Assembly: GCA_964609965.1 (NCBI GenBank)
Contig: CAZSTS010000003.1
Span: 199,537-263,536 of the forward strand
Direction: 5' to 3'
From: an uncultured Nitrospirales bacterium
GTDB taxonomy: Bacteria > UBA10199 > JADGCS01
DNA length: 64,000 bases
The number at the start of each line of letters is the position of its first letter. The first letter of the stretch is position 1. Under the pieces are notes generated by a model that was not told the DNA's origin, did no database searches, and saw only the letters and a program-made list of their open reading frames with translations. Both the position numbers and the translations under genes were made by a program. This document shows, piece by piece, positions 10,823 to 37,449 of the stretch.

Positions 10823-12367
10823 ATGCACGACAAATTAGAACTATTAAAACAATATAATGAGAAAGCGCTACTTGGGGGCGGACAAGCTCGTATAGACAAA
10901 CAACACGCAGCTGGAAAGATGACAGCACGAGAGCGAATAGAATTTTTGCTCGATGAAGGTTCTTTTGTAGAGGTTGATAAATTTGTGGCTCATAATTGCC
11001 AGGATTTTGGTATGGAAAAAAAGAAGGTTTTGGGTGACGGTGTTGTGACAGGGTATGGAACGGTTAACGGGCGTAAAATATTTGTGTTTGCCCAAGATTT
11101 CACTGCCTTTGGGGGCTCATTAGGTGAGGCTTTTGCTCAGAAAATATGCAAGATCATGGATATGGCAAAAAAGACCAATTCTCCTGTTATTGGTTTGAAT
11201 GATTCAGGTGGTGCTCGTATTCAAGAAGGAGTGGTAAGTTTAGCAGGGTATGCCGATATCTTTTTACGAAATGTCATGTCTTCGGGTGTTGTTCCACAAA
11301 TTTCGGTTATTATGGGGCCTTGTGCAGGTGGTGCTGTGTACAGTCCAGCCATGACTGATTTTATCATCATGGTGAAAAAAAGTTCACATATGTTTATCAC
11401 AGGTCCCGAAGTGATAAAAGCGGTTACCCACGAAGATGTGAATAAAGAAGACTTAGGTGGTGCCGAAGCCCATGCTACAAAAAGTGGTGTGGCACATTTT
11501 GTTGCTGAAGATGAGCAAGATGCCTTGAATATCGTAAAAGATGTTTTGAGTTATTCACCTTCGAGCAACTCAGAGAGAACTCCTGTTAGTGCTACTGATG
11601 ACCCCTGGGATCGTGAAGATGAGAGTTTAAATACGGTCGTCCCAAATAATTCTAAAAGGGCTTACGATGTTAAAGACATCATCACAAAGGTTGTTGATGA
11701 TGGAAGATTTTTAGAAGTCCACAAAAGTTACGCTCAAAACATGGTTGTGGGGTTTGCGCGATTTAAAGGGCGTTCTGTTGGTATTGTGGCAAATCAACCT
11801 TCTTTTTTAGCAGGGTGTTTAGATATTAAAGCTTCGGTGAAAGGGGCTCGTTTTGTTCGTTATTGCGACGCTTTTAATATCCCCTTGGTTACCTTTGTTG
11901 ATGTTCCTGGTTTCTTGCCAGGAATCCAACAAGAAGAGGGAGGTATTATTTTTAACGGTGCTAAACTTCTTTATGCTTTTTGTGAGGCGACAGTTCCCAA
12001 AATTACACTCATTCTTCGCAAGGCCTATGGTGGGGCCTATGATGTGATGAGTTCAAAGCATATTAGAGGCGACATCAATTACGCGTATCCTTCTGCTGAG
12101 ATTGCTGTTATGGGGCCTCAAGGGGCTGTGAATATTATTTTTCGTAAAGAGATAGCTGCTGCAGAGGATCCTGCTAAAACAAAAGAAGAACTCGTTGATC
12201 AGTATTGTGAAAAATTTGCTAATCCTTATAAAGCGGCTGAGCTAGGGTACATTGATGAAGTGATTTACCCTCAAGAAACGAGAAAAAAGATTGTACAGGC
12301 ATTAGAAATGCTAAAAGATAAGGTGGATAGTAATCCCAAGAAGAAACATGGGAATATACCTTTGTAG
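10823..12367 (+). CDS. Acyl-CoA carboxylase carboxyltransferase subunit (propionyl-CoA carboxylase beta / methylmalonyl-CoA carboxyltransferase 12S family)
   Basis: 514 aa with strong family resemblance along the whole length ([40 protein letters not shown]). Confidence 0.9.
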
Positions 12368-15414: not shown

Positions 15415-16122
15415 ATGAAAAATGTTAAATTAAAATTCGAAGACTGTGAATGGGCCTCAAATCCTATTTTTGAGAAACTTCTTCCCAGTGAAATTCAACT
15501 TATTGAAGAAAACAAAGTTTGTAATATCTATAAGAAAAGTCAGGCGATTTTTCATGAAGGAAATCCCCCTTTGGGTTTGTATTGTGTTCATGAGGGAAAT
15601 GTAAAAGTTTTTAAAACTGGAGTGGATGGACGTGAACAAATTGTGCGAATGGCCAAAAAGGGTGACATCATTGGTTACCGTGCTTTGATAGGAAAGGAGA
15701 TTTACACTGCCACTGCTTCGGCTATTGTTGATTCAAAAATTTGTTTTATTGAAAAGCAGGTATTTTTTGATATTATTAATTCTAATCAAGAAATGCTTTG
15801 GGCTATGATGCGTTTACTCGCTCACGAGTTACATGCTGCAGAAGATTTTTTGGCTGACATGGCTCAAAAAACAGTGCGTGAAAGACTTGCCGAAGTTCTC
15901 ATCCTTCTCAAAAACAAATATGGTTGCCAAGAGGTAGATGATGAAACATTGAATGTGATTTTATCACGCGATGAGCTCGCGAGTATTGTGGGTACAGCTA
16001 CTGAGACTCTTATCCGGCATCTATCAGATTTCAAGGATGAAGGTGTGATTCAAGTGAAGGGTCGCAAAATCAAAATTGTCGATTCAGAAAAGCTTATTGG
16101 TATAGCTAATATTAGTTTGTGA
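15415..16122 (+). CDS. Crp/Fnr-family transcriptional regulator
   Basis: cNMP-binding beta-roll (FHEGNPPLGLYCVHEGNVKV ... DIIGYRAL) plus a C-terminal HTH (RDELASIVGTATETLIRHLSDF). Confidence 0.85.
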   Translation: MKNVKLKFEDCEWASNPIFEKLLPSEIQLIEENKVCNIYKKSQAIFHEGNPPLGLYCVHEGNVKVFKTGVDGREQIVRMAKKGDIIGYRALIGKEIYTATASAIVDSKICFIEKQVFFDIINSNQEMLWAMMRLLAHELHAAEDFLADMAQKTVRERLAEVLILLKNKYGCQEVDDETLNVILSRDELASIVGTATETLIRHLSDFKDEGVIQVKGRKIKIVDSEKLIGIANISL

Positions 16123-19123: not shown

Positions 19124-20089
19124 CTATTCCATATCTGCAATTCCCGTACCTTCTGTGTTAGAAGCTTGTCTGTTATCGCTAATAGGATGTTTTCCAAAAA
19201 CAGTGTGGCGTGTTCGTGATTTTCCTGATTCTCGTTGTGGAGAATCTAGAACATTAAGAGTTGGACCGTTTCGTGTTTGATACGTGGTGAGGCTTTGGCC
19301 AAGTGTTCCATCAATCCCTTCGGTCAATTCATCGAGTTCCATTGCAAGAGCTAATGTTTCGGGACGATATTCAGTGTTCGAAAGATTTTCATAGGGTTCT
19401 TCGAGTTCAATTGATTCAGCACCAGGAAAATCTGCAAAGGCATCAAAGGGTTCTACATCAGTAGCATCTGCGAGGGCATCAAGGGGTTCAGCATCAGGAA
19501 CAGCCAAACCGCGAGCTTCAACCAGCGCATCATGGGATGTGTAAAACGAAAGTGAACCTGTGAGATATTCAAATCCTTCGTTTTCTCCGTTTCCTTTGTT
19601 TGGTTTTTGAATAATATAAGCAGCAGCGCCGTATTCTTCAGTGTTTCTTCCCAGATCTCTTTCTAAAACACCTAGGAGGCCTTCTGCTGGAATGGTTGTT
19701 GCGGTTAAAGTATAGCCTCCATCCTCTGGTTGATAATCTGCAAATCTTGTTAATTCGAGATCCATGAAGTTAGATATATCATCGGCAAAAATAGTTGTGT
19801 TGAAGGGCCTGTCTAGATTTGAAAATTCACCATCAGTTCGGGTCATTGTGACAGTTGCGCCTTCTTTGAGTGATTTTTGTCTAGCGCCGTTTGAGTCAGT
19901 GTACCATGTGTAGGCATCTGAGTTTGCTGATAAGGTACTGGGATCAACACCGTTTAATTCGGCAAGTCTTTCAAGGCTTGAATAATCCCAAGCCAAATTA
20001 GCTACGCTTTCAGCAGTAACTTCTTGATCACTATCTCTGACCATGTCTTCAAACTGTTCTCTAGTTGGTATTGTAAATTCTATTTGCAT
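19124..20089 (-). CDS. Hypothetical acidic protein (321 aa); distal gene of the unknown cluster
   Basis: ORF only, no recognisable domains. Convergent with the response regulator, with a 6-bp gap. Confidence 0.45.
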   Translation of the reverse strand: MQIEFTIPTREQFEDMVRDSDQEVTAESVANLAWDYSSLERLAELNGVDPSTLSANSDAYTWYTDSNGARQKSLKEGATVTMTRTDGEFSNLDRPFNTTIFADDISNFMDLELTRFADYQPEDGGYTLTATTIPAEGLLGVLERDLGRNTEEYGAAAYIIQKPNKGNGENEGFEYLTGSLSFYTSHDALVEARGLAVPDAEPLDALADATDVEPFDAFADFPGAESIELEEPYENLSNTEYRPETLALAMELDELTEGIDGTLGQSLTTYQTRNGPTLNVLDSPQRESGKSRTRHTVFGKHPISDNRQASNTEGTGIADME

Positions 20090-20319
20090 AATATCTCCTA
20101 ATCCTGTTTTTTAGCCCTGATTTTATGCCCTGTAGCGCTTGTTCTAAACAAGCTGTCACTATTTATATAAGCAAGATGCGTGCCAAAGTGACAAGTTTTA
20201 AGTTACTGTAATTACTTGTTAATTAATGTGGTGATTTGTTAAGAGATGTCTAAAGACCCCAAATTACAGAAAAAGAGGAGAAAATTGTCTGCAGGGTGTT
20301 GAAAATGTATATCTACGCG

Positions 20320-21807
20320 TCAGTAGTAGAGATAGGCTTTATTTTCATACGATTTAATGATGTCACCAAAGCAGTGTTGCTCAGAGAAGTAGGGTGTGAA
20401 ATGATTTGCCATGTCTTTTAAAAAACGACCATCGTAATATTCCTGGGCAGCATCAATTCCTTCTAAGTAAAATATTAGACAAAGGGCATTCATGCGATCA
20501 GTCATGTATTGATTTGCTTCTTTCATGGAACAGAACTCAGGTTTTTTATTGCCAGAGATTTTGGGCTCTGTTTTTTTCCACTCTTCTGCTGCCAATTCTT
20601 GAAAACGCTCGTCTCCATATAATTGACGTTGTTTCTCAAACAGGTAAACAGTATTTTCTATTAAATCTTGTGTTATGTCTAAAACATTTGAATAGCTGAA
20701 TTCGGATAAGGCTCTTTGACGTAGCTTCTTTGCTGGTTTTCCGCTGTGCAATTCTCTCCAGGCTATTTGATACATGCGTGGCTGATAAGGTTTGGGCATA
20801 TGCCTTGATTGAGAATCATAAAACACTCTCATGGGTGTATTGAAAAGAGGGCTTTCTTGAAAATTTTGATAGGAATTTTCGCTTAAGGTTTCTTGTCTAG
20901 CAAAGTCTCCTCTAAATTCATAAAAATCAGCATCTCTAAAGCCTTTGGTCATGATGTATACTTTAGTGCATAGAATTTCGGCATCAACTTCAGCTTGCAT
21001 GAGATTAGTTTCAGCTCCAGTTTCTGACATTTGGTATTCGTGATAACATTCATGGGCAAAAGCTGGAATAAAAGGGATGAGCGTTAATTCAGGATCGAAT
21101 GCCTTTAAAGGGTCAGTGAAATAAGGTTTTGGAAAATCAATGCGTCTTTGATGAGGGTTATAACTTGATTGGACAGCGATTACCCGGTGTGAGTCTTCGT
21201 CATAAGCAATTTTACCATCGAGAGCTCCAAAATTAAAGCGTCCTGACTCTATCCACTGTAATGTATAATCAAGAAAAGAATCGAATTCTCCATCAGGGAG
21301 GATGGCTTTGTTTCCTTGGGCTACCCAATGATCGTGAGTTTCTTTCACATTATTCATGGCCAGCCATGCAAGAGCAACAACTTGGGCTCCATTTTGATTG
21401 ATGCCGTGATAAGTGAGGAGAACAGGGATAAGTCTTTCTACAAGGTTTACAATATTGGAAATGCCTTCTGACGTTTTTTCGATGACTTGTGCGAGTGTGC
21501 CTAAGTCAAAATCTTCCCAACGTTCAAGTAAGGGATCAACTTGTCTTTTGAGAATTTTTTCTATGATTTCTAATCGCCAATTTCTAAAAGTGGGAGGGCC
21601 TGTTGGAGAACCTGATAATTCGTTAAGAATAGGGTTCCTATAATCACCCATATTCTTAAAATCATCCATCTCAAAGATGATGTCACCGTCATTCAACCTT
21701 GAAATTTCCAAGGCGGCCATCTCAATAGGAGATGCAATATTGCCAGCTTCTAGCGTAGCTTCAACATAGCCAAGATCTATGGATAATAAGTCTGAAGAAT
21801 ATGTCAT
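20320..21807 (-). CDS. Hypothetical 495-aa protein with a single HExxH motif (AHECYHEYQ); possible metallopeptidase-like
   Basis: ORF plus motif only. No signal peptide. Confidence 0.45.
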   Translation of the reverse strand: MTYSSDLLSIDLGYVEATLEAGNIASPIEMAALEISRLNDGDIIFEMDDFKNMGDYRNPILNELSGSPTGPPTFRNWRLEIIEKILKRQVDPLLERWEDFDLGTLAQVIEKTSEGISNIVNLVERLIPVLLTYHGINQNGAQVVALAWLAMNNVKETHDHWVAQGNKAILPDGEFDSFLDYTLQWIESGRFNFGALDGKIAYDEDSHRVIAVQSSYNPHQRRIDFPKPYFTDPLKAFDPELTLIPFIPAFAHECYHEYQMSETGAETNLMQAEVDAEILCTKVYIMTKGFRDADFYEFRGDFARQETLSENSYQNFQESPLFNTPMRVFYDSQSRHMPKPYQPRMYQIAWRELHSGKPAKKLRQRALSEFSYSNVLDITQDLIENTVYLFEKQRQLYGDERFQELAAEEWKKTEPKISGNKKPEFCSMKEANQYMTDRMNALCLIFYLEGIDAAQEYYDGRFLKDMANHFTPYFSEQHCFGDIIKSYENKAYLYY

Positions 21808-21933
21808 GTTTGTATACCCTGTATTTAGCCCCTGAGTAAAACCTGTATCGGGAGAGGGTTTGAGAAGTTGTGTGTTTTTTACAAGGTGCGTAAAAATATG
21901 GTTTTACTACATTTTTGGGATAGTTGGAGGGGG

Positions 21934-22398
21934 TTAGGCAGCTTTCTTAAAAACAATGTCTACAGTGCAATCCAGTGCTGAAAGTAATTTAATCATCTGA
22001 TCGATAGATTTGTTGTAAAAGGTTTGATCCAAAAGACGGTAGAATTGTGTGGGTGATGTTTGCATGCGTCTAATGATTTCGCGTTTATTGACTTTGTTTT
22101 TCTTAATAAGCTGTTGTGCTTTGAGAGTAAGCTTATAGAGAAGCATATTTGTTAAATAATCTAGGTCTGCATTATAGTCTAGTACCTGATCGATATGAAT
22201 CGTGTCTTCCTTTCCTGATTCTAAGGTATATGTAAAAGCCTCGTTTCCTAATTCGCTGTCAACGTATACATCACTAATTTTATTAGTAAGAGTAGGTTTT
22301 AATTTTAGACGAGAATAGGGGAATACGTATTCTTTGCTACTTGTTGTTAATTCGAAATGTTTTTTTTTGTTATTATATGTGATATTTTTAATCTTCAT
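21934..22398 (-). CDS. DUF2442-like N-terminal domain fused to a C-terminal HTH-like region
   Basis: N-terminal pattern (VDSELGNEAFTYTLESGKEDTIHIDQVLDY) resembles DUF2442. C-terminal region (REIIRRMQTSPTQFYRLLD...) is HTH-like. 4-nt ATGA overlap with the upstream DUF4160 gene. Confidence 0.5.
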   Translation of the reverse strand: MKIKNITYNNKKKHFELTTSSKEYVFPYSRLKLKPTLTNKISDVYVDSELGNEAFTYTLESGKEDTIHIDQVLDYNADLDYLTNMLLYKLTLKAQQLIKKNKVNKREIIRRMQTSPTQFYRLLDQTFYNKSIDQMIKLLSALDCTVDIVFKKAA

Positions 22399-22598
22399 AA
22401 TAAACCTTCTTTTTGTAATTCTACTATAATTTTTAATACACGTTTTGATGGGGTTCCGACCATGGCTTTGTTTTCATCAAGATCCCATTTGAGAATCAGT
22501 TTCTTATTATGATAAACATGAACATGGTTCCCATGATCGCCAATCCAACTTAGGAAAATGTAATTTCCTCTTTTTATTTTGCCCATAAATAGTACCAT
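22395..22598 (-). CDS. DUF4160-family small protein
   Basis: GKIKRGNYIFLSWIGDHGNHVHVYHNK closely matches the DUF4160 signature (..DHNPPHFH..). An alternative start lies at the second Met. Confidence 0.6.
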   Translation of the reverse strand: MVLFMGKIKRGNYIFLSWIGDHGNHVHVYHNKKLILKWDLDENKAMVGTPSKRVLKIIVELQKEGLL

Positions 22599-22786
22599 AT
22601 ATGTAACTATTTGTCAAAATAGTTCTTGTTGATATTCCTGCTGGTAGAGTGTTTTGCAAGGATGATGCCAAGAGATGAATATAATTAAAATCAATTAAAA
22701 CAACATTTTAAAGCGCTGGGTCATTTGAGTGAGTCTCATGAGATTGGGCGAGTCCCATTTTTGGGACTGATGGGACTAAAGTGGGA

Positions 22787-23614
22787 CTAATATAAAATCA
22801 AATATCCAGCTATAAATAGCCATGCCAGAAGATCAAATAGTCCTAAGGTAAGAAAAATAATAGACCAGATCACAGCAGATGTGCCTCTAAAGATGTTTGT
22901 TTCCCATTCACCAGGGATTCTAATTTCTTTTTTAAGGAAACCAATCAGAGCATAAAGAAAAAACCATGCATGAAGACCGATGAGCATGATACTAAAACTG
23001 AATCCAAAAAGTTTTAGTGCCAAAGGAGAGGTGAAAAAGAAAAAGAAGGCTGCCATGATAAGAAACAAAACAATTCCACAAAGAGATGCTTTTCTAAAAA
23101 TCAATTTTAAGTTTTGAAGTCTTGTGATTTTATTCTTTGAGGCAAGGGGTTTTAATTTATCAAGTCGTTTCAGTTCTCGTTCTTTATAGGCTTGTAGATC
23201 AAAGGTTCTAATGGCATCCCATTTTCTATCACTAATTTTCTTTATGTATTTAAGATCAGTTTTTCTCAAAAATCCTAAAACTTCAAAAAGCACAGATTCT
23301 CTGATTTTGTCTTCTGTGCTCAAAGGTGTTGTCTTGTTTTTGACCATCATGCCACAGCCAATAAAGATGCTGGCTAGAAACAGACCAAAGAAGAGGGCGA
23401 TTATTAAATAGATGAGACTGTCTGCTTTGTCTTGATAGCCAGTAAAGCCAAGATAGAGGCAAAAGAAGAAAACCAGTCCACCAAATAATAAACCAGTCCA
23501 ATACGCGTGTTTTCCAAAGCGTGTTTCTGCCCAGGCTACATATTTTTCGACTTCCACGTTTTGATTTTCTAAAATGGTTTGGGCTTGTTTTGAAAAAAGA
23601 TTTTTTAAGGACAT
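22787..23614 (-). CDS. Integral membrane protein (275 aa, about 5 TM helices with a basic cytoplasmic loop)
   Basis: Hydropathy pattern only. Confidence 0.5.
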   Translation of the reverse strand: MSLKNLFSKQAQTILENQNVEVEKYVAWAETRFGKHAYWTGLLFGGLVFFFCLYLGFTGYQDKADSLIYLIIALFFGLFLASIFIGCGMMVKNKTTPLSTEDKIRESVLFEVLGFLRKTDLKYIKKISDRKWDAIRTFDLQAYKERELKRLDKLKPLASKNKITRLQNLKLIFRKASLCGIVLFLIMAAFFFFFTSPLALKLFGFSFSIMLIGLHAWFFLYALIGFLKKEIRIPGEWETNIFRGTSAVIWSIIFLTLGLFDLLAWLFIAGYLILY

Positions 23615-23637
23615 GGTATTGTTTAATCAGAGATACA

Positions 23638-24669
23638 TTAGTCTTCGAAGAAAGTATCAATCCAAGGTGATTCTGGTTTTGAATTATCCCAAGGTCTCAG
23701 GCCTAAAAACTCTTCAGTAAAAGCCCAGGGGTTAATGCTAGAACCTGTTATCCCGTCTATCCAAAACTCTGTTACTTTATCACCTGCTTCTGGTACTGTG
23801 GCCATTTCAAGTGTAGGGTCCATGTCATCATCTTCAAGTGTAGGTACTCGAGTTGTTGGTGCAATCATAGATACATTGGTTGGAGTATGTCTGAAGCGCA
23901 TTTTGTCTCCAAATTGGACAATATCTCCTGTTTTAAGAGTCCATGCATAATACCCAGTTACTTCCTTAATCACAGATGCTGTCATCGTATATGGGTCAAT
24001 TTGAGTAATTCTAATATGATCGTTTAGCATTTCTTCCACGCTAGCTGGCTTATCGCGCGTTCTTTCATATTCTATCACATATATTTCAGTTGGTCTTGAG
24101 CGGCTTTTTAAATTGCGGATAATGTAAATAGGGATATTTTTGCTGAAAGTAGTTATACTGAATTCATCTTTTTTCTCCTCATATTGCATTGCCAATAAAT
24201 TACCTGAGCGTTGGAAGGAATAGCCCCCACGTTTTCTGAGATATCTAAAAATGGATTGTTTAAGAGGACCTACATCAGGTGTTAACAGGATGGGCACATA
24301 GCCTTTTTGTAAAGCCCTAGTTGTGAAAGCGCTAGAAGCCAGGTCTTTTATTTCAATTTGTGTGGGGAGAGTTGCGTGCCATGTACCAGCGGCGATGGCG
24401 CCAGCTGGTTCGGGGACAGCATGAGCTGATGACGCGACACCACGTTTGCTAGCGTCAGCTGCTAAACCTGGTGCGTCCGGGACAGCGCGAGCGGGACCTG
24501 ATCCACTGGGACCTACTAAAACAAAACCATCACTGTCTTCGTTGCACAAATTCGTTGATCCGTATTGGAGCAACCATTGCATTTTGGTGGGCATAGTTTG
24601 AAATACATCAGCTCCTGGCAAAGCAGTATTTCCAAAACCAAGAGTAGGATTTAAAGTTAAATAACTCAT
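23638..24669 (-). CDS. Hypothetical cytoplasmic protein (343 aa) with an internal Gly/Ala/Pro-rich linker encoded by a GC-rich patch
   Basis: No signal peptide. Degenerate P-loop-like string VLVGPSGSGPARA. Lies 23 bp upstream of the membrane protein gene. Confidence 0.5.
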   Translation of the reverse strand: MSYLTLNPTLGFGNTALPGADVFQTMPTKMQWLLQYGSTNLCNEDSDGFVLVGPSGSGPARAVPDAPGLAADASKRGVASSAHAVPEPAGAIAAGTWHATLPTQIEIKDLASSAFTTRALQKGYVPILLTPDVGPLKQSIFRYLRKRGGYSFQRSGNLLAMQYEEKKDEFSITTFSKNIPIYIIRNLKSRSRPTEIYVIEYERTRDKPASVEEMLNDHIRITQIDPYTMTASVIKEVTGYYAWTLKTGDIVQFGDKMRFRHTPTNVSMIAPTTRVPTLEDDDMDPTLEMATVPEAGDKVTEFWIDGITGSSINPWAFTEEFLGLRPWDNSKPESPWIDTFFED

Positions 24670-24671
24670 AA

Positions 24672-25331
24672 TTAAATAAATGTAGGCAGAACAAACGCTA
24701 CTACTTTTCCGTCATTTCTATTTTGTTTTAATTTGATTCTCTCTCCAGGAAATAAAGCAATGCTTTGTCCAGGTGTGAGTGGGAGCCATGTGCCAAGGTC
24801 ATCCATGAAATAAAAGATAAGATCACCCGAACGGTTTGTATTATGGTCTGTGTTAGTGAGGATCCATCTTGCTTTTCTTGTTCCTTTTGCTCTGTGTGGA
24901 TCGAGTTCAAAACTCACATCAAATTCTCTAAGAGAATTAAAGTCTGTTTTTAGAAGACGTTGACCAGTTCGTTCTGATTTTCTTCTTCTCGCTCTTATTT
25001 CTGTAGTGAGTAAGCCAATGAGTTGTTCACTCAATGTCATTCTTATTTCTGGTTCTAGATCCCAATACGAAGTTCCTCCAGAAGCATCAGGTCCTTGTTC
25101 TCCATATCTTTGCCTTACTCCAAAATCTAAATCATTTTCTGTATCCTCACATACAAATGAATCAAGACAGGCAAGTGGTAGTCTTGTTTGAGGTGTGTCT
25201 TGAAATAGAGCAGGATCAACTAATTGAAAGGCCTGTACGGTTTGTTCTCCTGTGCCTAGCCATTGAGCCATGTTAAGATAAAATAAACTCCCAGTGGCTT
25301 CGGGTCTAAAATTGGACATGTAACTGGACAT
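24672..25331 (-). CDS. Hypothetical cytoplasmic protein (219 aa), translationally coupled to the 343-aa protein
   Basis: 2-bp gap to the downstream gene. No known motifs. Confidence 0.5.
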   Translation of the reverse strand: MSSYMSNFRPEATGSLFYLNMAQWLGTGEQTVQAFQLVDPALFQDTPQTRLPLACLDSFVCEDTENDLDFGVRQRYGEQGPDASGGTSYWDLEPEIRMTLSEQLIGLLTTEIRARRRKSERTGQRLLKTDFNSLREFDVSFELDPHRAKGTRKARWILTNTDHNTNRSGDLIFYFMDDLGTWLPLTPGQSIALFPGERIKLKQNRNDGKVVAFVLPTFI

Positions 25332-25443
25332 TTTTCTCTAAAATTCCTTAGCTAACAAATTATTAACGGGTACACCTTGAACACAAATGATTTAGTCAAC
25401 TTATCGGTATATTAAACCATTTGTTTCGATGGGAAGGGAGATT

Positions 25444-25463
25444 TCGTGTCCTTGGGGACACGA
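25444..25463. promoter_or_regulatory. Perfect palindrome TCGTGTCC-TTGG-GGACACGA; candidate operator or UAS (internal copy)
   Basis: 8-bp perfect arms with a 4-bp spacer, about 115 bp upstream of the start of the 24672-25331 gene. Same motif as 27626-27645 and 27658-27677. Confidence 0.6.
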
Positions 25464-25465
25464 AG

Positions 25466-25505
25466 GAGTTTGGAGTGATGAGTAATGAGCGATGAGAAAT
25501 GACAT
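25466..25505. repeat. Tandem heptanucleotide array (ggagttt ggagtga tgagtaa tgagcga tgagaaa tgacata)
   Basis: 7-nt periodicity directly adjoining the palindrome. Confidence 0.6.
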
Positions 25506-25519
25506 AAGGCATATGTCTT

Positions 25520-26062
25520 TTATATCAATTCATAATAGAAATAACATGTCGAGTAAGTATTAGAAGGTTCGCAGACGCATTCAATGGATTCATCTGAGTG
25601 TTCTATGTTATAAATTTCACATTCACAGGGAAAAATAACAGAAGGGTGGCCATACCAGTCTAGGTAATTTGTTTCGAATTCAAATGTGTCGTCAGAATAA
25701 ATCACCGCATTCCATATGAGTTGGCCTGAGCTTGTTTCAAAGTCCATCATGTCATCATAGGAATAAACATCTAAGTATGTTGGTAATTCCAAATCAGGAT
25801 CATCATACCCGTAGTCATCGCATGTAGAATAATATTCATTAAGCTCATACGATCCAAAAAAGCTACGAGATGAACCCTTATAATAACTAGACCAATAGTC
25901 TAGGCCGCCTGAGGGATCATCTTCATCACAATCATCGTATTCCTCGTAGATGTACTCTGTTTCGGTGTATGAATAGACTTCATCATCATGCCAGTACTCA
26001 TGACAAGATGTGAGCATAAAAAATGAGATCAAACAGAAGCTTAATAATATATTTTTCATCAT
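25520..26062 (-). CDS. Extremely acidic Tyr/Asp/Glu/Cys-rich lipoprotein (180 aa)
   Basis: Lipoprotein signal (LTSC). The mature part is dominated by Y, D, E and 9 Cys (ECVCE, CEC). Confidence 0.55.
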   Translation of the reverse strand: MMKNILLSFCLISFFMLTSCHEYWHDDEVYSYTETEYIYEEYDDCDEDDPSGGLDYWSSYYKGSSRSFFGSYELNEYYSTCDDYGYDDPDLELPTYLDVYSYDDMMDFETSSGQLIWNAVIYSDDTFEFETNYLDWYGHPSVIFPCECEIYNIEHSDESIECVCEPSNTYSTCYFYYELI

Positions 26063-26086
26063 ATTTCCCTCACCTTGGAATCATGG

Positions 26087-26386
26087 TTACAAAATGATGT
26101 GCAAAAATCCAAACAACCCACAGTTTCTGTGGTGGTGTCGATTATAGCAGGGGTAAGAGCAACCATGTCCATGGCAACAACTTCTGTGGGAGTAGCGTGA
26201 GTAATGACGATGGTGTGATTTGTAATGTTTGACGTGTTTGGTTACATGTTTGTGGACATGTTTTTTATGGACGACGTGACTTTTATGGCTATGTTTGTGG
26301 TGTTTTTTAGCATAGCTGTCTGGGCTATGAAGCATGAGCATCGAAAAAACGACTATAACACTAATAATGAGTAGTACTTTCTGCAT
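26087..26386 (-). CDS. Hpn-like His-rich, Cys-containing secreted protein (99 aa)
   Basis: Signal peptide, then KKHHKHSHKSHVVHKKHVHKHVTKHVKHYKSHHRHY ... SCCHGHGCSYPC. Resembles His-rich Ni/Zn-binding proteins such as Hpn, including the CC-HGH element. Confidence 0.55.
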   Translation of the reverse strand: MQKVLLIISVIVVFSMLMLHSPDSYAKKHHKHSHKSHVVHKKHVHKHVTKHVKHYKSHHRHYSRYSHRSCCHGHGCSYPCYNRHHHRNCGLFGFLHIIL

Positions 26387-26577
26387 GATTCCCTCCTATT
26401 GTTAAAATCCCCTTAATTTCTGTGTTCTGAAAAGGTTAATCGATGGGAGGGCTGAAATAGTTTTAATTAATTGAGATTGATGTATTTATAGCGGAATATC
26501 GTAAATTATGCGAAGTTGTTGCTTGAGTGAGAAGTTAGCGCGGTTCTTTTTTCAACAAAAGAGATCCTTAAACAAGA

Positions 26578-27015
26578 TTAAAACTTCTTACCAGGTCCAC
26601 CGTGAATTTCAGGATATTTGGTTTTTTGAGTTTCTGAAGCAGCTTCTTCAGCTGGAAAAAATTCTGCGCCACCATTTGCTTTAAAGGCTCTTCGAGCACG
26701 CCAGTCTAGAATCCTGGTCACGTAATCTTGAGCAACTGATCTGGATTTTGTTTTTAATACAGCAGCTAGGTCTTGAGAGGCTCTGGCTAAACACTCAGCT
26801 TGTGAGGGATCTGCTTCAGGATCCTCTTTCACTAATTTACTACGACCATAATCAATGAATTCTTTTTTTTCTACATCTTCGTTGATGCCCCAGGTAGTAA
26901 AACCTTTTCCATTGTCAAAGAGTATAAGCTCAGGATGTAGGTCGTAATAATCGGTTTCTTTACTAGCTGCTGTTTCAAACGAAGCAAAGTTTACACATGG
27001 AAATTGGTCATACAT
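26578..27015 (-). CDS. Hypothetical 145-aa protein, paralog B of a tandem pair
   Basis: Shares blocks YYD..P.L..FDNG.G.TWG.N.DVEK.E...YGR, ARASQDLA.VL.TK..SVA.DYVTRILD and FKANGGA.FFPAEEAA with the neighbour. Confidence 0.55.
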   Translation of the reverse strand: MYDQFPCVNFASFETAASKETDYYDLHPELILFDNGKGFTTWGINEDVEKKEFIDYGRSKLVKEDPEADPSQAECLARASQDLAAVLKTKSRSVAQDYVTRILDWRARRAFKANGGAEFFPAEEAASETQKTKYPEIHGGPGKKF

Positions 27016-27083
27016 GGCATTTTTCCTTTACAATTTAGGAGATTGTTTTTTTGTTTAAAAACAAAAAGATGTCTAATAATATT

Positions 27084-27539
27084 TTACCATTTACGTGAGT
27101 TTTGTGGTGCAAAAAGTTCTGTGCCAGAATGACTAGGTTCGTCAGCTGCTTCTTCAGCAGGAAAAAACGCTGCACCACCATTTGCTTTAAATACTGTGGC
27201 TGCGTCTTTGTCTAGAATTCTGGTAACATAATCAGTGGCAACGCTTTTAGGTTTAGTTTGCAAAACCAGAGCCAGATCTTGAGAGGCCCTTGCTAAAGCT
27301 TCGGCATCTGTGACTTCTTTATCAGAATCACTAGCTTGCAATGCTTTTCTTCCGTATGCGGTAAGTTCACGCTTTTCTACATCACTATTGAGACCCCAGG
27401 TAAAAGCACCATCACCATTATCAAAGGGTTTGAGGTCAGGATTTTGGTCGTAATAACTAAGTTGCTTTTCAGCAGGGTTGTTAGCGACTTCAGGTGCAGT
27501 TTCATTTCTATATTGTGCGGATAGGGCTTCATCTAACAT
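27084..27539 (-). CDS. Hypothetical 151-aa protein, paralog A of a tandem pair; first gene of the cluster
   Basis: See paralog B. No signal peptide. Confidence 0.55.
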   Translation of the reverse strand: MLDEALSAQYRNETAPEVANNPAEKQLSYYDQNPDLKPFDNGDGAFTWGLNSDVEKRELTAYGRKALQASDSDKEVTDAEALARASQDLALVLQTKPKSVATDYVTRILDKDAATVFKANGGAAFFPAEEAADEPSHSGTELFAPQNSRKW

Positions 27540-27625
27540 AGTATTTCTCCTTCTAACGGGCTGACATTAATACAAGTGCCTTACTAGTATATTTATCGCA
27601 TGAAAAAAACTGAAGTTACGCGGGT

Positions 27626-27645
27626 GATGCAATTTTCGTGTCCTT
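27626..27645. promoter_or_regulatory. Palindrome TCGTGTCC-TTTG-GGACACAA; candidate operator or UAS (proximal copy)
   Basis: About 95 bp upstream of the start of the first cluster gene. One mismatch in the right arm. Confidence 0.55.
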
Positions 27646-27657
27646 TGGGACACAAGA

Positions 27658-27677
27658 TTTGAAGAAATCGTGTCCTC
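27658..27677. promoter_or_regulatory. Palindrome TCGTGTCC-TCAA-GGACACGC; candidate operator or UAS (distal copy)
   Basis: 32 bp centre-to-centre from the proximal copy, which is three helical turns. Confidence 0.55.
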
Positions 27678-27915
27678 AAGGACACGCCTGATAGCGTTAA
27701 AGCTGTTAAATATTGTTGTATCTTGTTGAAATATTATGCTGATTTCCTATTGCCATTACGACAAATTCTGTTTTTTGACGCCCAAAATTTATGATTTAAT
27801 AAGCAACACAGATGAAATATAAGCCGATAAATAAAGTATAACGAAGAGTGAAGAAAGCGATACATTAGCATATAGGGTGCCAAAAATCGCAACAATTTAA
27901 AGCATATAGGATACC

Positions 27916-28839
27916 ATGAATAAGCAAAAATCACTTAAAACGCTTAATGTGTTTCAATATGATGATTACCGCCAATTTTTAGCTGATTTTTATGAGCTGA
28001 AAAAGAAGGAAATGCCCACTAAGTTCTCATATCGTTTTTTGAGTCAAAAAGCTGGGTTTCAAACATCTACTTTTTTTCATCGTGTTATTATTGGTAAACG
28101 TAATCTCACTTTAGAGAGTATACGTAAAATCGCTGCTATTATTCCTCTTACTGGACGTCCTTATCAATATTTTGAAACACTTGTTCTCTTTAATCAGGCC
28201 AAAACAGAAGAAGAGAGAATGATTCATTTTGATGCTCTTAAAGAATTTAAAGAATTCATAGCTCTCAGACTCATTAACGAAGATCAATCGACTTACTTAT
28301 TAAAATGGTATTACCCAGTTGTGAGAGAGATGATTAAATGGGATGGTTTTAAACCTGATGCTAGTTGGATAGCCAACAAGATTAGACCTAGAATATTTGT
28401 TAAGCAGGCTGAAGAAGCTATGGAAGTTTTGCTTAAACTTAAATTAGCAACAGTTTTAGCTGATGGTACGTGGGAACAATCTTATCCAAAAATTATGACT
28501 GAAGAAGAAGGTTTAGGCCAAGAAGCCATTAGCTATCATAAAAATGCAATTCACTTAGGCCAACAGGCTCTGACTTTACCAGCCAAAGATAGACATGTAA
28601 GTGCCATGACTATTTCCATGTCTCCTGCGTTGTTTGAATTGATGCGCCAGAAAATTTACATCTTTCATAAAGAGATGTCTGGTCTTATTTCAAAAAAACT
28701 CGATAAAACACTTTTAAGAAAAAACAATATTGATGAAGAAATGATTAACTCTAAGGGATTTTTAGATGTCTCAGAGGTTTGTCAGTTTAATATGCAAATG
28801 TTTAAGGTGGCTAAAACAGGGAGAAAAGATGAAGAATAA
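27916..28839 (+). CDS. Putative HTH transcriptional regulator (TIGR02147-like family), divergent from the unknown operon
   Basis: N-terminal YRQFLADFYE...FSYRFLSQKAGFQTSTFFHRVIIGKRNLT pattern. The family assignment is from memory and is weak. Confidence 0.4.
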   Translation: MNKQKSLKTLNVFQYDDYRQFLADFYELKKKEMPTKFSYRFLSQKAGFQTSTFFHRVIIGKRNLTLESIRKIAAIIPLTGRPYQYFETLVLFNQAKTEEERMIHFDALKEFKEFIALRLINEDQSTYLLKWYYPVVREMIKWDGFKPDASWIANKIRPRIFVKQAEEAMEVLLKLKLATVLADGTWEQSYPKIMTEEEGLGQEAISYHKNAIHLGQQALTLPAKDRHVSAMTISMSPALFELMRQKIYIFHKEMSGLISKKLDKTLLRKNNIDEEMINSKGFLDVSEVCQFNMQMFKVAKTGRKDEE

Positions 28840-30922
28840 ATTATATACGATCATGGGTGTCCTCATTACTGTATTTTGTGTTTCTTGCTTTGGATCAGGC
28901 ATGTCTGATTCTTTAGACACAGGCACAGGTCTTGATGATGAAGGTTCAACAACAAGTATTACGGTCATTGGTAATCCTTCGCTCAAAGTGAATAACACAG
29001 GGACTGTTTATCTTATTGATAACCTAGACTCAGACAATTTTAAGTTCTTTAGCGATACAAGTATTGAAAGTGTTTTGAGTCTCACAGTAGCAAATACAGA
29101 TTTAGCTGAAGACGCGATTCTTGACACTCCTGTTCCAGCTATTGATGGTTTTGTTCTTAGTCCAAACAATGAAACTGAAATGGTTTTTGTTCTTGAGGCG
29201 TCATTCGTAGTTAATGACCAAAATTGCTTTGTTGTTTTTGTTGATAGCGCAGAAGAAAAATGTATTCACGAAGCTAAAATTCAAGACAAACCTCAGTTTG
29301 ATGCAAATGGAAATGTGTATTTCTATGATAATAATTTAGAATTAGGTACAGAGGGGCTTGTAAAGTGGGCTAAGGCCACTGGCGAAAAAATCTACATTAC
29401 TAATCCTAATTTTGAACTTGCACAGCAGATGGTACACGCTGATGGCACAGTCTATCTGACTGATACAGCGGGATCTTTAAGAACAGTGAGCCCTGATAAT
29501 ATACTCAGTAATCGTCTTTCGGGTGATCGTGTTGATTCATTTAATATTGTAGATGCCAATATTCTCTTGCTTCAAGGTGAGATTACTTTTGAAGAAGAAC
29601 AGAGCTATGGGTATTATTTTTATGATCATACGGAGAAAGAAATTATCGCGGTTTTAGATTACAATGGCAATGCTGACCTTTCATCCTCTATGTATGTTGA
29701 TGGTGAAAATAGGATCTTGGTTCAAGATGGTGACAGTATAATCAAGATTTATCCTGGTGTGTCTGAAATAATTGAGCTTGGTTTAACTCAAATTAATTTT
29801 AGCATAGTTCATGATAATACCCTTTTTGCCTCTGGTAGGGTAGAAGGCACGCAAAAGTTTGTTAAACTTGACTTAAGTGATGAAGAGGCTGCTCCTGTGA
29901 CAGTGCTCAGTGGTCACGAAGTGTATAATGCAGAACTCGGTTCTAACTCTAATCTATACTATGATGCGCAGAACTTTAATACTAATCAGTACTATCTTGG
30001 TATTTTAGACGTCACAACCAATGATGTGATTTTTACTGAAGAGGTTTTAGATGGTTCTGTTGTTAATATTGATTCTGTTTATTCAATCAATAATAATTCA
30101 TTTTCTGAAATCACGTTTGAAACAAATACACCTTACGCTCTTGTGAGAGCTGCCACTGCGCAACGTGGGGAATTTGTTAAAGGCAGACTATTAGAAGATG
30201 TTGATCTCACAATTGATTTTGATGCTGAAATCTATCGCAAAAGATTTCAGAATGGTAAGCTACGCTTCACTGTTGACAGTGCTGCTAGTATAAGAGTGAT
30301 TAAGCCAAGATTGAACTGGGTTTATGAAGTAGAATCAGATGCAACCGACACTCAGGACTTAAGCCATTTGAATATTGATAAAATCACATTGTTATCTGCT
30401 TCAGAAAACCTCGTTGGTATTTTGGCAACAAGAAAAATCTATGGCGATCAAGTGTTTAAAATCTACTCTTATGAGGTTAATGAGTCTGAGAGATCTGTGA
30501 GCTTTACTTTTGAAAAATCTATCATGCTAGATGATAGGGTGTATAATGTTAAAGCAAGCGAAACTGCTGATCGTATCCATTTAGTAAGTCGTCGTGGTGA
30601 TATTACGATGTATAATTTTGATCTAGAATTATTGGCTGAATCGCGTGTGTTTTTTGGACGAGGTAATGTGAGTATTGTTTCTGATACAAATGGTTTCTTA
30701 TTACTCAGAAGCAGCTTCATGACTTCGGCAAATATCTTAAGATCAAAACTATTGATTTTAGATGTGAGCGCTGGTGACTACAATCACATTCAAACAATCA
30801 GAGTAAAAGCAAACAGACACTTACTAAATGCTTCACTGTATGACTCTGAAACAATGGCTATAAAGACTTACTCGCGAACCACTGATATGATCGAATATTA
30901 TATTCTAGAAGAAAACGAGTAG
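28829..30922 (+). CDS. Large lipoprotein (698 aa from MKNKLYT), possibly a beta-rich or propeller-like surface protein
   Basis: Start moved to the ATG at 28829, which has a GGGAGAAAAG RBS. Lipobox VSCFGSG. No catalytic motifs. Confidence 0.5.
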   Translation: MKNKLYTIMGVLITVFCVSCFGSGMSDSLDTGTGLDDEGSTTSITVIGNPSLKVNNTGTVYLIDNLDSDNFKFFSDTSIESVLSLTVANTDLAEDAILDTPVPAIDGFVLSPNNETEMVFVLEASFVVNDQNCFVVFVDSAEEKCIHEAKIQDKPQFDANGNVYFYDNNLELGTEGLVKWAKATGEKIYITNPNFELAQQMVHADGTVYLTDTAGSLRTVSPDNILSNRLSGDRVDSFNIVDANILLLQGEITFEEEQSYGYYFYDHTEKEIIAVLDYNGNADLSSSMYVDGENRILVQDGDSIIKIYPGVSEIIELGLTQINFSIVHDNTLFASGRVEGTQKFVKLDLSDEEAAPVTVLSGHEVYNAELGSNSNLYYDAQNFNTNQYYLGILDVTTNDVIFTEEVLDGSVVNIDSVYSINNNSFSEITFETNTPYALVRAATAQRGEFVKGRLLEDVDLTIDFDAEIYRKRFQNGKLRFTVDSAASIRVIKPRLNWVYEVESDATDTQDLSHLNIDKITLLSASENLVGILATRKIYGDQVFKIYSYEVNESERSVSFTFEKSIMLDDRVYNVKASETADRIHLVSRRGDITMYNFDLELLAESRVFFGRGNVSIVSDTNGFLLLRSSFMTSANILRSKLLILDVSAGDYNHIQTIRVKANRHLLNASLYDSETMAIKTYSRTTDMIEYYILEENE

Positions 30923-35007: not shown

Positions 35008-37449
35008 ATGCAAATTAAAAAAGCTGCTGTATTAGGCTCTGGTGTCATGGGCGCTGCTATTGCTGCCCACCTTGCTAATGCAGGGATTCCCTCGATTCTG
35101 CTCGATATTGTGCCACCTAAATTTACAGATGAAGATAAAAAAGCTGGTTTGACTGAAGATTCACCAGGATTTCGCAACAAGTTTGCTTTGAATGCTATCA
35201 ACAATGGTTTGCCCAAACAAAAGCCTTCGCCCATCTTTGATAAACGCGTTTTAAAATTAATGACGGCAGGCAATTTTGAAGACGACATGGATAAACTTAA
35301 AGATTGTGATTGGGTGATCGAGGTTGTTGTCGAGCGTTTAGACATCAAACAAAAAGTGTTTACGAATGTCGAAAAACACATGAAGCCCGGTGCCATTATT
35401 TCATCTAACACTTCAGGGATTAAATTAGTTGATATGATTGAAGGCCGTAGTGAAGAGTTTGCAAAAAACTTTATCATCACACATTTTTTCAACCCTGTTC
35501 GTTACATGAAGCTTGTCGAAATCATCACATCTGACAAAACAAATCCAGAAGTCACATCATTTATGGCTGAGTTTTTGGAAGACACACTTGGCAAAGGTGT
35601 TGTGTATGCCAAAGATACTACGAGTTTTATTGCTAACCGCATTGGTATTTACGGTTTTATGGCCATCATGCATGAGGCCATTAAAGCGGGTTTAAGTGTT
35701 GAAGCTGTTGATAAAATCACAGGCCCAGCAACGGGCAAACCAAAGTCAGCTACGTTTCGTACAGGCGATTTGGTTGGTCTTGATACCTTGGCGCATGTGG
35801 CAAATAATAGTTATGAACAGTTGCCTGATGATGAAGGGCGCGAGATTTTTAAACTGCCTGAGATTGTGAAGCAATTGATCAAAAAGAATTGGCTTGGCGA
35901 TAAAACCAAGCAGGGCTTTTATCAAAAATCGCGTGATGCAGAAGGCAAGCGGTTGATTCTTTCTGTTGATCTCAAAACATGTGAGTACACGCCTCAAGAA
36001 AAAGTTCGCTATGACAGCCTTGGTCTTGCCAAAAATACTGAGAATGTCGGAGAGCGCATCAAGATGATGGTAAATGCTGAGGATGAAGCAGGTAAGTTTG
36101 CTTGGGTAACCACGCGCGCGGCGTTAACTTATTCGGCCAATCGCATTCCAGAAATTGCTGACGATGTTGTTAATATCGACAATGCCATGAAATGGGGTTT
36201 TAATTGGGATCTGGGTCCTTTTGAAATCCTTGATGCCATTGGTGTTAAAGAGTTTGCTAGTCGTCTAGAAATTGATGGCGTGAAAGTGCCTCCTATTATT
36301 TCTTCAGTTCTTACAGATGGCGAAGGTGTTTTTTACAAATCAGAAAAAGGTGTTCGCTATTACTTTGATATAGCTTCCAAGGCCTATCAACCTGTAAAAA
36401 CCAGATCTACTTCGCTTGTGATTAAATCACTCAAAGATCAGGACAAAGTATTAAAGTCTAATGATGGGGCTTCAATCGTCGATCTCGGTGATGGTGTTGT
36501 GAACGTAGAGTTTCACAGCAAGATGAATGCCATTGATAATGACATTGGTGAGATGATCAATGCAGCCATTGATTTGGTTGAAACAGATGATGCGTACAAG
36601 GGTATTGTTATTTCAAACGATGCTCAGCATTTTTCTGTTGGAGCAAATCTCATGTTGATTTGGATGGAATCGCAACAAAAAAATTGGGAAGGCATTGAAG
36701 CCATGATCAAAGGGTTTCAAGATGTTTGCATGCGTCTCAAGTATTCAAAAAAACCAGTTGTCGCAGCACCCGCAGGCATGGCGCTTGGTGGTGGTTGTGA
36801 AATTGTTTTAGGTTGTGATGCTGTTCGGGCATATTCTGAAACCTACATTGGTCTTGTAGAGTTTGGCGCTGGTCTTATTCCCGGTGGTGGCGGCAATAAA
36901 AACTTGCTGCTTAACCTCGAAGCCAATCTTAAAGAAAAGGGACCCAAAGGTTGGGCAGGTAAATCAGATGGTGGGCCATTTCCAAAAGTGCAACAAACGT
37001 TCGAAAAAATTGGCTTTGCCAAAGTGGCTACAAGTGCTTCTGAGGCCATGACATTTGGTTATCTTCCAGGACAAAAGAAAACAAAGGTGACTTTATCTCG
37101 TGATCGCTTGCTTTATGATGCCAAGCAAGACGTTTTAGAGCTCGCTAAAAATTACGAGCAACCTGTTCAACGAGAAGATATTCTTGTTCCTGGTATGGGT
37201 GGTAAGATGGCCATGTATTCAGCGATAGATGGTTATTTATTGCAAGGCTTGATTTCTGCACATGATGCTAAGATTGCCAAAAAATTAGCCCATGTTTTAG
37301 CGGGTGGTGATTTGCCAACGCAAGGTTACGTGACCGAACAAGAACTTTTAGACATTGAACGCGAGGCTTTTATCAGTCTTTGCGGCGAAGAAAAAACTCA
37401 AGCCAGAATGCAGCACCTGCTCATGAAGGGAAAGCCTTTGCGTAATTAA
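35008..37449 (+). CDS. Fused 3-hydroxyacyl-CoA dehydrogenase (N-terminal) / enoyl-CoA hydratase (C-terminal), FadN-type
   Basis: Start moved to the ATG at 35008 (RBS AGGAG). N-terminal Rossmann motif AAVLGSGVMGAAIA. C-terminal crotonase fold. Confidence 0.85.
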   Translation: MQIKKAAVLGSGVMGAAIAAHLANAGIPSILLDIVPPKFTDEDKKAGLTEDSPGFRNKFALNAINNGLPKQKPSPIFDKRVLKLMTAGNFEDDMDKLKDCDWVIEVVVERLDIKQKVFTNVEKHMKPGAIISSNTSGIKLVDMIEGRSEEFAKNFIITHFFNPVRYMKLVEIITSDKTNPEVTSFMAEFLEDTLGKGVVYAKDTTSFIANRIGIYGFMAIMHEAIKAGLSVEAVDKITGPATGKPKSATFRTGDLVGLDTLAHVANNSYEQLPDDEGREIFKLPEIVKQLIKKNWLGDKTKQGFYQKSRDAEGKRLILSVDLKTCEYTPQEKVRYDSLGLAKNTENVGERIKMMVNAEDEAGKFAWVTTRAALTYSANRIPEIADDVVNIDNAMKWGFNWDLGPFEILDAIGVKEFASRLEIDGVKVPPIISSVLTDGEGVFYKSEKGVRYYFDIASKAYQPVKTRSTSLVIKSLKDQDKVLKSNDGASIVDLGDGVVNVEFHSKMNAIDNDIGEMINAAIDLVETDDAYKGIVISNDAQHFSVGANLMLIWMESQQKNWEGIEAMIKGFQDVCMRLKYSKKPVVAAPAGMALGGGCEIVLGCDAVRAYSETYIGLVEFGAGLIPGGGGNKNLLLNLEANLKEKGPKGWAGKSDGGPFPKVQQTFEKIGFAKVATSASEAMTFGYLPGQKKTKVTLSRDRLLYDAKQDVLELAKNYEQPVQREDILVPGMGGKMAMYSAIDGYLLQGLISAHDAKIAKKLAHVLAGGDLPTQGYVTEQELLDIEREAFISLCGEEKTQARMQHLLMKGKPLRN

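Follow-up and report, generated by a model that had tools for sequence, protein, structure and literature searches.

Eleven open reading frames (ORFs), all on the minus strand and running from position 27539 down to 19124, stand side by side in a 64-kb stretch of contig CAZSTS010000003.1 (the window, to which coordinates refer unless another contig is named), and the question they raise is whether so tidy a row of orphan genes is one functional system. The initial annotation of this row, here lettered A to K from its upstream end, had proposed a self-contained module under a dedicated operator. We favor a different reading, to which we assign a probability of roughly 0.5: the row is a chromosomal patch of lineage-restricted genes that would be transcribed as at least five units, neither one operon nor a conserved system, in which the proposed units A-B and E-F-G share a composite promoter. 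The other units proposed are C-D, H-I, and J and K.

A palindrome at a fixed distance from predicted FliA-type promoters

Three palindromes had been described as perfect, and all three sites are where they were placed. Palindrome 1 (TCGTGTCCTCAAGGACACGC, 27668-27687) and palindrome 2 (TCGTGTCCTTTGGGACACAA, 27636-27655) lie upstream of A, the center of the first being 32 bp upstream of that of the second, and palindrome 3 (TCGTGTCCTTGGGGACACGA, 25444-25463) lies between D and E. Full perfection as TCGTGTCC-N4-GGACACGA held only at 25444-25463, the two upstream sites having one mismatch each, while the core GTGTCC-N4-GGACAC is perfect at all three. A search for TCGTGTCC-N4-GGACACGA with two or fewer mismatches returned three sites, with none expected in shuffled sequences. 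The core itself occurs three times in the 64 kb, always in the cluster, where about 1e-3 sites would be expected by chance, and it is absent from the approximately 18 kb past either window end.

On the minus strand, palindrome 2 (toward A) and palindrome 3 (toward E) are each followed by exactly 37 nt and then by CGATAA. This hexamer belongs in both cases to a sigma-28/FliA-like -10 box: GCGATAA at 27593..27599 (minus strand), 54 nt before the start codon of A, and CCGATAA at 25401..25407 (minus strand), 70 nt before that of E. The predicted A-B promoter, TAAC-N15-GCGATAA, spans 27618-27593. The center of the palindrome precedes the -10 box by 47 bp, which places it near position -60.

The same arrangement was found on a contig from a distant organism (L127; GC content, 0.40), which carries the single remote homolog of F, designated P0054. 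There are three cores in its 11.8 kb (2864-2879, 9793-9808, and 10989-11004), all intergenic and around the F homolog, against about 2e-4 expected; with a further site at 1007-1022 of contig L128, they lie beside the sole F homolog and the gene for a 2272-aa protein. Read toward the flanking genes, site 2864 gives N37-CGATAA (804-aa gene), site 9793 gives N37-CGATGA (2272-aa gene), and site 10989 gives N37-AGATAA (the next gene), and in the other direction site 9793 is followed by N48-CGATAA, one helical turn more, toward P0054. The offset shared by the window and L127 has a chance probability of about 2e-6. On sequence grounds, the palindrome is a genuine, conserved cis element and not a chance occurrence, and the predicted promoter architecture palindrome-N37-CGATAA is common to A-B and E-F-G and recurs with the same spacing in a distant organism. 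Since the composite promoter on L127 precedes the genes for the 804-aa and 2272-aa proteins and another gene besides the F homolog, the description of the palindrome as a dedicated operator was not upheld.

Several further observations concern these loci. Two of the L127 sites are inside a repeated 54-nt promoter segment whose copies are 89% identical. The 2272-aa protein has a HELTH motif and a C-terminal ABC1 kinase domain; the presence within it of the domain of J was considered and rejected, the alignment being confined to the HExxH motif. Upstream of an A-family homolog in an organism with a GC content of 0.46 (L134, 3878-3937) is an inverted repeat, GATGCAATTTTCG-N31-CGAAAATTGCTTCATC, and the 15-mer GATGCAATTTTCGTG is common to that repeat and to window positions 27626-27640, which comprise the flank and the start of palindrome 2 (chance, about 3e-4). 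Among the matches listed, the exact 20-mer TCGTGTCC-N4-GGACACGA is also multicopy in the Latescibacterota metagenome-assembled genome OZ252100.1 (L012, L028, L038, and others), in Butyricicoccus pullicaecorum (L008, L047, L063, L074, and L085), and in many Gemmatimonadaceae; we presume that in those high-GC genomes it is a repeat or a terminator with no relation to the element described here. A literature search on the palindrome found nothing relevant.

Other promoters and candidate regulators

The remaining units are preceded by promoter matches of other kinds. We tested the sigma-54 consensus TGGCAC-N5-TTGCW, with GG and GC 10 nt apart, and found perfect matches on the minus strand at 22655..22670 (TGGCATcatccTTGCA), 57 nt upstream of the H start codon, and at 20170..20185 (TGGCACgcatcTTGCT), 81 nt upstream of the K start codon. 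Perfect matches number three in the window against 0.1 expected, and four Sigma54_activat genes are encoded within 30 kb. The third match (36517-36532, minus strand) is antisense within a fatty-acid oxidation gene. H-I and K would thus have perfect sigma-54 consensus promoters in place of the composite promoter. For C-D, only a sigma-70-like match was seen, and upstream of J there is an exact CCGATA, some 44 nt from the ATG, but no palindrome. Judged by these predicted sites, the cluster has at least three promoter types and its regulation is heterogeneous; it is therefore unlikely that all eleven genes are transcribed or regulated together.

Divergent from A is a gene, here called REG (27916..28839, plus strand), that had been annotated as a helix-turn-helix (HTH) regulator, and this assignment was confirmed: residues 11 to 264 of its 307 match TIGR02147 at 214.1 bits (cutoff, 50), and DUF4423 is matched at 90.5 bits. 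REG is a candidate binder of the palindrome and has its own GCCGATAA at 27823-27830. Its 3' end overlaps by 11 nt the gene for a 697-aa lipoprotein (28829..30922, plus strand; the ORF opens at 28766, and metagenome gene callers start it at 28829), and because of this overlap the two probably form one operon. An alternative binder is the CRP/FNR-family regulator encoded 3 kb from the cluster (15415..16122, plus strand), which has cNMP_binding and HTH_Crp_2 domains. On the minus strand at 27867-27915 there are also two direct copies of GG(T/C)A(T/C)CCTATATGCT, 33 nt apart; one copy of the CCTATATGCT type overlaps the REG start codon, and the other is a sigma-54 consensus with one mismatch (TGGCACcctatATGCT).

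Gene layout and coding status

The coordinates and lengths of all eleven ORFs agree with the initial annotation, and a codon score supports the annotated frame for all but C. A (27084..27539; 151 aa) encodes an acidic protein without a signal peptide and would lead unit A-B, in which B (26578..27015; 145 aa) is its tandem paralog; the paralogy that had been claimed is clear, with 62% identity over 112 aa (E = 8e-46). ORF C (26087..26386) would encode 99 aa, and D (25520..26062) encodes 180 aa. E (24672..25331; 219 aa) and F (23638..24669; 343 aa) encode soluble proteins. They had been called translationally coupled, and they are indeed adjacent, F starting 2 nt past the E stop; an overlap between them was not found. 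G (22787..23614), whose start lies 23 nt past F, encodes a 275-aa membrane protein. H (22395..22598; 67 aa) overlaps I (21934..22398; 154 aa) by 4 nt in a small two-gene unit, and I has a C-terminal Cro/C1-type HTH. The last two genes are J (20320..21807; 495 aa), encoding a putative zincin-like metallohydrolase, and K (19124..20089; 321 aa), encoding a very acidic, soluble protein.

From A to K, the intergenic gaps are 68, 191, 24, 188, 2, 23, 188, -4, 126, and 230 nt. The first seven genes had been taken as one tightly packed series, and the gap sizes instead divide them into three subclusters, A-B, C-D, and E-F-G. The codon-usage log-likelihood was trained on 22 Pfam-confirmed genes of the window, which themselves score 0.17 to 0.42 per codon; every cluster ORF except C scores 0.10 to 0.33 in its own frame, and the five alternative frames all score below zero. 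C has an in-frame score of -0.20, and in a collection of 15 billion proteins its exact sequence does not occur, no gene caller having ever called it. It does have a strong AGGAGGG Shine-Dalgarno sequence and a start resembling a signal peptide, and its status as a gene is, from these sequence features, uncertain.

The charges and compositions that had been reported for these proteins were reproduced. C contains 22 His and 5 Cys residues in 99 aa (22% His, with Cys pairs) at an isoelectric point (pI) of 10.1, and D contains 41 Asp plus Glu, 25 Tyr, and 9 Cys residues in 180 aa at a pI of 4.05; K is likewise acidic (pI 4.1). The reported topology also holds: the N termini of C and D are hydrophobic, D is a predicted lipoprotein with an LTSC lipobox, and G has five or six hydrophobic spans together with an approximately 75-aa charged loop. 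No hydrophobic span was found in A, B, E, F, J, or K, the test having covered all but H and I. D would be an extremely charged exported protein, as would C should it prove to be a real gene.

The cluster sits in a housekeeping neighborhood with genes for MurJ, complex I, beta-oxidation, purine synthesis, and sigma-54 activators. Its GC content (0.33 to 0.42) and codon usage are indistinguishable from those of the host genes. No tRNA and no Rfam family was found in the 64-kb window, and no phage (PHROGs) or defense (PADLOC) match in the cluster. Contigs from six samples, assembled separately in JGI, ENA, and Logan (L001 to L006), are 99.98 to 100% identical to window positions 13638-34669, and a conserved 500-aa enzyme had no relative of 90% identity or more beyond the population of these contigs. 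The lineage looks clonal and poorly sampled, as if from one clonal population. To the left of the window and into it (window 261-1634), contig L135 (5727-11374) carries a PAS histidine kinase gene, then three tandem sigma-54 enhancer-binding protein genes, and further on a STAS anti-sigma-antagonist gene followed by a SpoIIE/GAF phosphatase gene.

Homology searches and homolog neighborhoods

The initial annotation could assign no family or catalytic signature to the cluster proteins, and searches of four profile hidden Markov model (HMM) libraries and of Protein Data Bank (PDB) sequences led to the same result. A to H, J, and K had no significant match in Pfam, NCBIfam, PHROGs, or PADLOC; PDB sequence searches with A, E, F, J, and K gave no real match; and no family was found for K in Pfam, NCBIfam, or PDB. 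Only I had Pfam matches, to HTH_26 (22.8 bits; cutoff, 22) and HTH_37 (E = 7.7e-5). H and I had been described as a DUF4160/DUF2442-HTH pair, of which the HTH of I stands; neither PF13711 (DUF4160) nor PF10387 (DUF2442) was seen in Pfam for H or I even at E ≤ 1. Overall, the profile and structure checks yielded the HTH of I and a confident model of J without a solved neighbor, and assigned no families.

Broader searches found few relatives. In a word-indexed search of 5.8 billion proteins, F retrieved only itself and A retrieved itself and B; the 90% identity clusters of the remaining cluster proteins held same-species variants only. We then relied on an exhaustive HMMER/phmmer search in which a concatenated E, F, J, and A query was compared with 1.84 billion representatives. 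This identified approximately 14 homologs of A/B, 31 to 42% identical over about 100 aa, many with an extra C-terminal domain, and an invariant motif for the A family, Y-x5-L-x3-DNGxG...N...E...G. F had one remote homolog, P0054 (E = 1.2e-5 by phmmer over the whole library; 28% identity over 212 aa by BLASTP), and E had no homolog outside its own species among the 1.84 billion representatives. The possibility that E is a paralog of F was unsupported on comparison. A scan for the A family among viral contigs gave no relative, and a metagenome locus scan with the family alignment gave one short contig. From these searches, the proteins appear not to be assignable with current libraries.

Nine homolog loci were available for a co-occurrence test: L129, L130, L132, and L134 for the A family, L126, L131, and L133 for the J family, and L127 and L128 for F. 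These loci are short (1.8 to 12 kb), and the test thus reaches tight linkage only. When the cluster proteins, the regulator, and the lipoprotein were compared with them by tblastn (E ≤ 0.5), each locus matched only the family that had seeded it and no second cluster member was found, contrary to the expectation of a conserved gene neighborhood. The single exception was a DUF4423 paralog (32% identity) beside the J homolog on L133. Up to 10 kb, the A, F, and J homologs each stand alone, with unrelated housekeeping or orphan genes as neighbors. As far as these sequences reach, a conserved multiprotein system elsewhere is not supported. The DUF4423 gene on L133 (2300-3139) lies 0.65 kb from the J-family homolog, and directly upstream of it (3170-3199) is a 30-bp palindrome, AAAGGATGCCCCCTTAAGGGGACATCCTTT, with TGYCC/GGACA-like half-sites, which may act as an operator or instead terminate transcription of the gene before it.

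A putative zincin-like family

J had been noted for an HExxH motif, and the motif is present as HECYH. The phmmer search gave approximately 19 homologs of 410 to 652 aa, 23 to 27% identical, and in the resulting 20-sequence alignment (A1) H252, E253, H256, and E273 are invariant, forming HExxH-x16-E. With the family alignment, AlphaFold2 (AF2) modeled J at a predicted local distance difference test (pLDDT) of 82.6 and a predicted template modeling score of 0.84, compared with a pLDDT of 35.6 from the single sequence. The model is mostly alpha-helical, with a small beta-sheet (strands 192-196, 215-217, and 222-226) ahead of the predicted helix that holds HExxH (246-263), and a following predicted helix (269-288) holds E273. 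The order of these elements in the model is that of a zincin core. Sixteen residues separate H256 from E273, the Glu lying on the predicted helix after the active-site helix; the corresponding spacing in thermolysin is 19.

Structural searches with Foldseek found no PDB entry below E = 0.5, and so no similarity to a solved zincin core, and nothing significant in the viral BFVD collection, where there was a weak SprT-like hint. J had no Pfam or NCBIfam match and fell in no curated peptidase family. A SprT-like Pfam hint (E = 0.012) occurs in 2 of the 20 family members, and family profiles against PDB and Pfam gave nothing past such weak SprT-like hints. We regard J as a putative zincin-like (Zn-dependent) hydrolase of a new family.

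We also considered and rejected J as a protein of transcription activator-like (TAL) effector repeats. The PDB match at E = 1.5e-13 was one weak 45-aa match summed 21 times: residues 104-147 share 18 of 45 positions with about 1.5 TAL-effector repeats, with a per-domain i-Evalue of at least 10 and 27 bits pairwise. The motif is not conserved in relatives of J and the match vanishes with the family profile, and it was judged to be due to chance. One family member, P0029, has an N-terminal extension of about 240 aa (residues 1-240). A weak Autotransporter beta-domain match (E = 0.022) occurs in 1 of the 20 members and, should P0029 be the one, would point to possible export of the domain in some species.

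Discussion

The predicted composite promoter consists of the palindrome (TT)TCGTGTCC-N4-GGACACGA(AA), 37 bp, and a CGATAA box matching the sigma-28/FliA -10 element, and upstream of A the second palindrome copy lies three helical turns further. Because the palindrome is centered at about -60, is spaced by helical turns, and accompanies poor -35 regions, we read it as the site of a dimeric HTH protein that would act as a class-I-type activator. The likeliest binder would be the divergent TIGR02147/DUF4423 regulator, with the CRP/FNR-family protein as the alternative. The attack-phase program of Bdellovibrio is defined by FliA-type promoters, and in a Bdellovibrio-like host the genes of A-B and E-F-G would belong to the attack or motile phase, with an extra activator gate. 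A wider version, that this is an undescribed regulon of uncultured marine Bdellovibrio-like bacteria in which a TIGR02147/DUF4423 regulator gates a subset of FliA-dependent attack-phase genes, including the new A/B and F families, with J as a zincin-like neighbor, is speculative and we consider it unlikely. Among the functions suggested in the initial annotation, predator-prey interaction survives, and we infer it solely from the predicted FliA-type promoter.

Several points weigh against the patch with a shared activator-type promoter. All of the promoter assignments are consensus matches, and the -35 regions, TAAC-N15 at A and GAAA-N15 at E, agree with the FliA consensus at only 2 or 3 of 5 positions. 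The composite promoter has been found in two organisms only, and neither a TIGR02147 nor a CRP gene lies in the 11.8 kb recovered of L127. The attack-phase reading holds only if the organism is Bdellovibrio-like, the sole hints of this being a TIGR02147 paralog family and low GC. Most homolog contexts are short contigs, and linkage past 2 to 10 kb is possible. Finally, the palindromes would form stable hairpins if transcribed (-13.8 kcal/mol; z, -5.6), and two of them lie just downstream of stop codons: palindrome 3 is 56 nt past that of D, and the third L127 site is 10 nt past that of P0054. This last point, together with one copy flagged in a terminator scan and the multicopy 20-mer of unrelated high-GC genomes, speaks for RNA elements such as terminators, insulators, mRNA-stabilizing stem-loops, or repetitive extragenic palindromic (REP)-like sequences. 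We regard that explanation as very unlikely. Palindrome 3 has no following U-tract, the two copies upstream of A stand between divergent promoters, where there is no transcript to be terminated, and what is kept between organisms is the sequence, including the unpaired flanks (TTTC...GAAA), and not pairing alone. An exact 37 nt to CGATAA has no rationale at the RNA level. The same spacing bears on a repressor, in which the TIGR02147 protein or another HTH dimer would keep A-B, E-F-G, and possibly the gene that encodes it silent in the absence of a signal. A local repressor is classically encoded in just this way, divergently and close to a palindromic site, and the two tandem sites upstream of A could cooperate. 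However, the sites lie upstream of the -35 region, centered about 47 bp before the -10 box and without overlapping the core promoter, and their spacing either holds to the exact base pair (N37) or differs by a single helical turn (N48), which points to contact with RNA polymerase on one face of the helix. The -35 boxes are weak, as at activator-dependent promoters. The geometry would thus fit a class-I-type activator and not a promoter-occluding repressor, and we hold repression to be doubtful.

The single module, in which two cytoplasmic structural proteins, two secreted metal-binding proteins, and one membrane protein would serve metal handling, a nanocompartment, or predation, seems to us a good deal less probable than the shared promoter within a patch of separate units. 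Its appeal is evident: the genes are co-directional and contiguous amid a well-annotated housekeeping neighborhood, two units have the operator in common, a divergent regulator is present, and C and D combine export signals with extreme opposite charge. However, homologs of A, J, and F occur singly and in unrelated contexts, the units differ in promoter type, and on L127 the operator would also control unrelated genes. The metal-binding pair was deduced from composition, and C is possibly not a gene; library scans matched no shell, ferritin, transporter, or chaperone family, and the nanocompartment or cargo proposal finds no shell-protein or cargo match. Horizontal acquisition, as a degraded prophage, a defense island, or a mobile element of orphan genes, is the most improbable of the explanations that we considered. 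It would account for eleven consecutive genes without Pfam family assignment among well-annotated neighbors and for the small toxin-antitoxin-like pair H-I embedded there. The GC content and codon usage are nevertheless those of the host, there is no tRNA and no PHROG or PADLOC match, the A family has no relative in viral contigs, and the promoters carry host-type alternative sigma consensus sequences.

Should the composite promoter be confirmed, TCGTGTCC-N4-GGACACGA-N37-CGATAA would serve as a sequence handle for listing co-regulated genes in uncultured predators and their relatives, and the palindrome would be the first candidate target site for the orphan TIGR02147/DUF4423 family. The J family is a confidently modeled HExxH...E family with no solved structural relative and a candidate new metallohydrolase clan. 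No long-standing question is opened directly. More generally, a row of orphan genes that looks tidy may comprise several units under independent regulation, with no single system behind them.

Comparison with known systems

Among the eleven proteins, no HK97-fold encapsulin or bacterial microcompartment (BMC) shell match was found in Pfam, NCBIfam, or PHROGs. ORF C resembles Hpn-like proteins in its 22% His and its Cys pairs. Hpn is cytoplasmic, whereas C has an export signal; C also has no sequence homology to such proteins and is possibly untranslated. With the gluzincins (thermolysin-like HExxH plus downstream Glu) and with minimal zincins of the SprT-like type, the J family shares its HExxH and a Glu 17 residues past the second His, invariant in 20 sequences, and the predicted succession of a small beta-sheet, an HExxH helix, and a second helix with the Glu.

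TIGR02147/DUF4423 proteins are putative HTH regulators that form a paralogous family in Fibrobacter and Bdellovibrio, and the link between REG and the palindrome is positional only. Bd3700, a member of the family, is among the proteins upregulated during growth of Bdellovibrio bacteriovorus within prey (PMC12546842). A full-text literature search on TIGR02147 returned only this listing in a proteome table, which describes no target site or function (PMC12546842).

In B. bacteriovorus, the FliA consensus TTAAG-N16-CCGATA is present in 66% of attack-phase promoters, and two-thirds of attack-phase promoters have nonflagellar, uncharacterized genes downstream (Karunker et al. 2013, PMC3627812). 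A palindrome of 20 to 26 bp fixed 37 bp upstream, as found here, is undescribed in that study, and the -35 elements here are poor. Kinship of the window organism with Bdellovibrio is hypothetical, and its promoters are predictions from sequence. The likeness lies in the -10 element, CCGATA(A) being exact upstream of E and on L127, with GCGATAA upstream of A, and in the position of these predicted promoters, here too, ahead of nonflagellar, uncharacterized genes.

Dimers of the CRP/FNR family can activate transcription in the class I manner; the site GTGA-N6-TCAC has a 4-N6-4 geometry. The predicted composite promoter resembles this in its two-fold symmetric site near -60 and in the further copy roughly three helical turns upstream of it. 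Its half-site, TGTC-N6-GACA, shares the 4-N6-4 geometry, and a CRP/FNR gene lies 3 kb away. The half-site sequence is nevertheless unlike those of CRP and FNR and unlike the MrpC motif TGTYN8RAC (PMC4320627), and the partner sigma factor is apparently sigma-28-like and not sigma-70.

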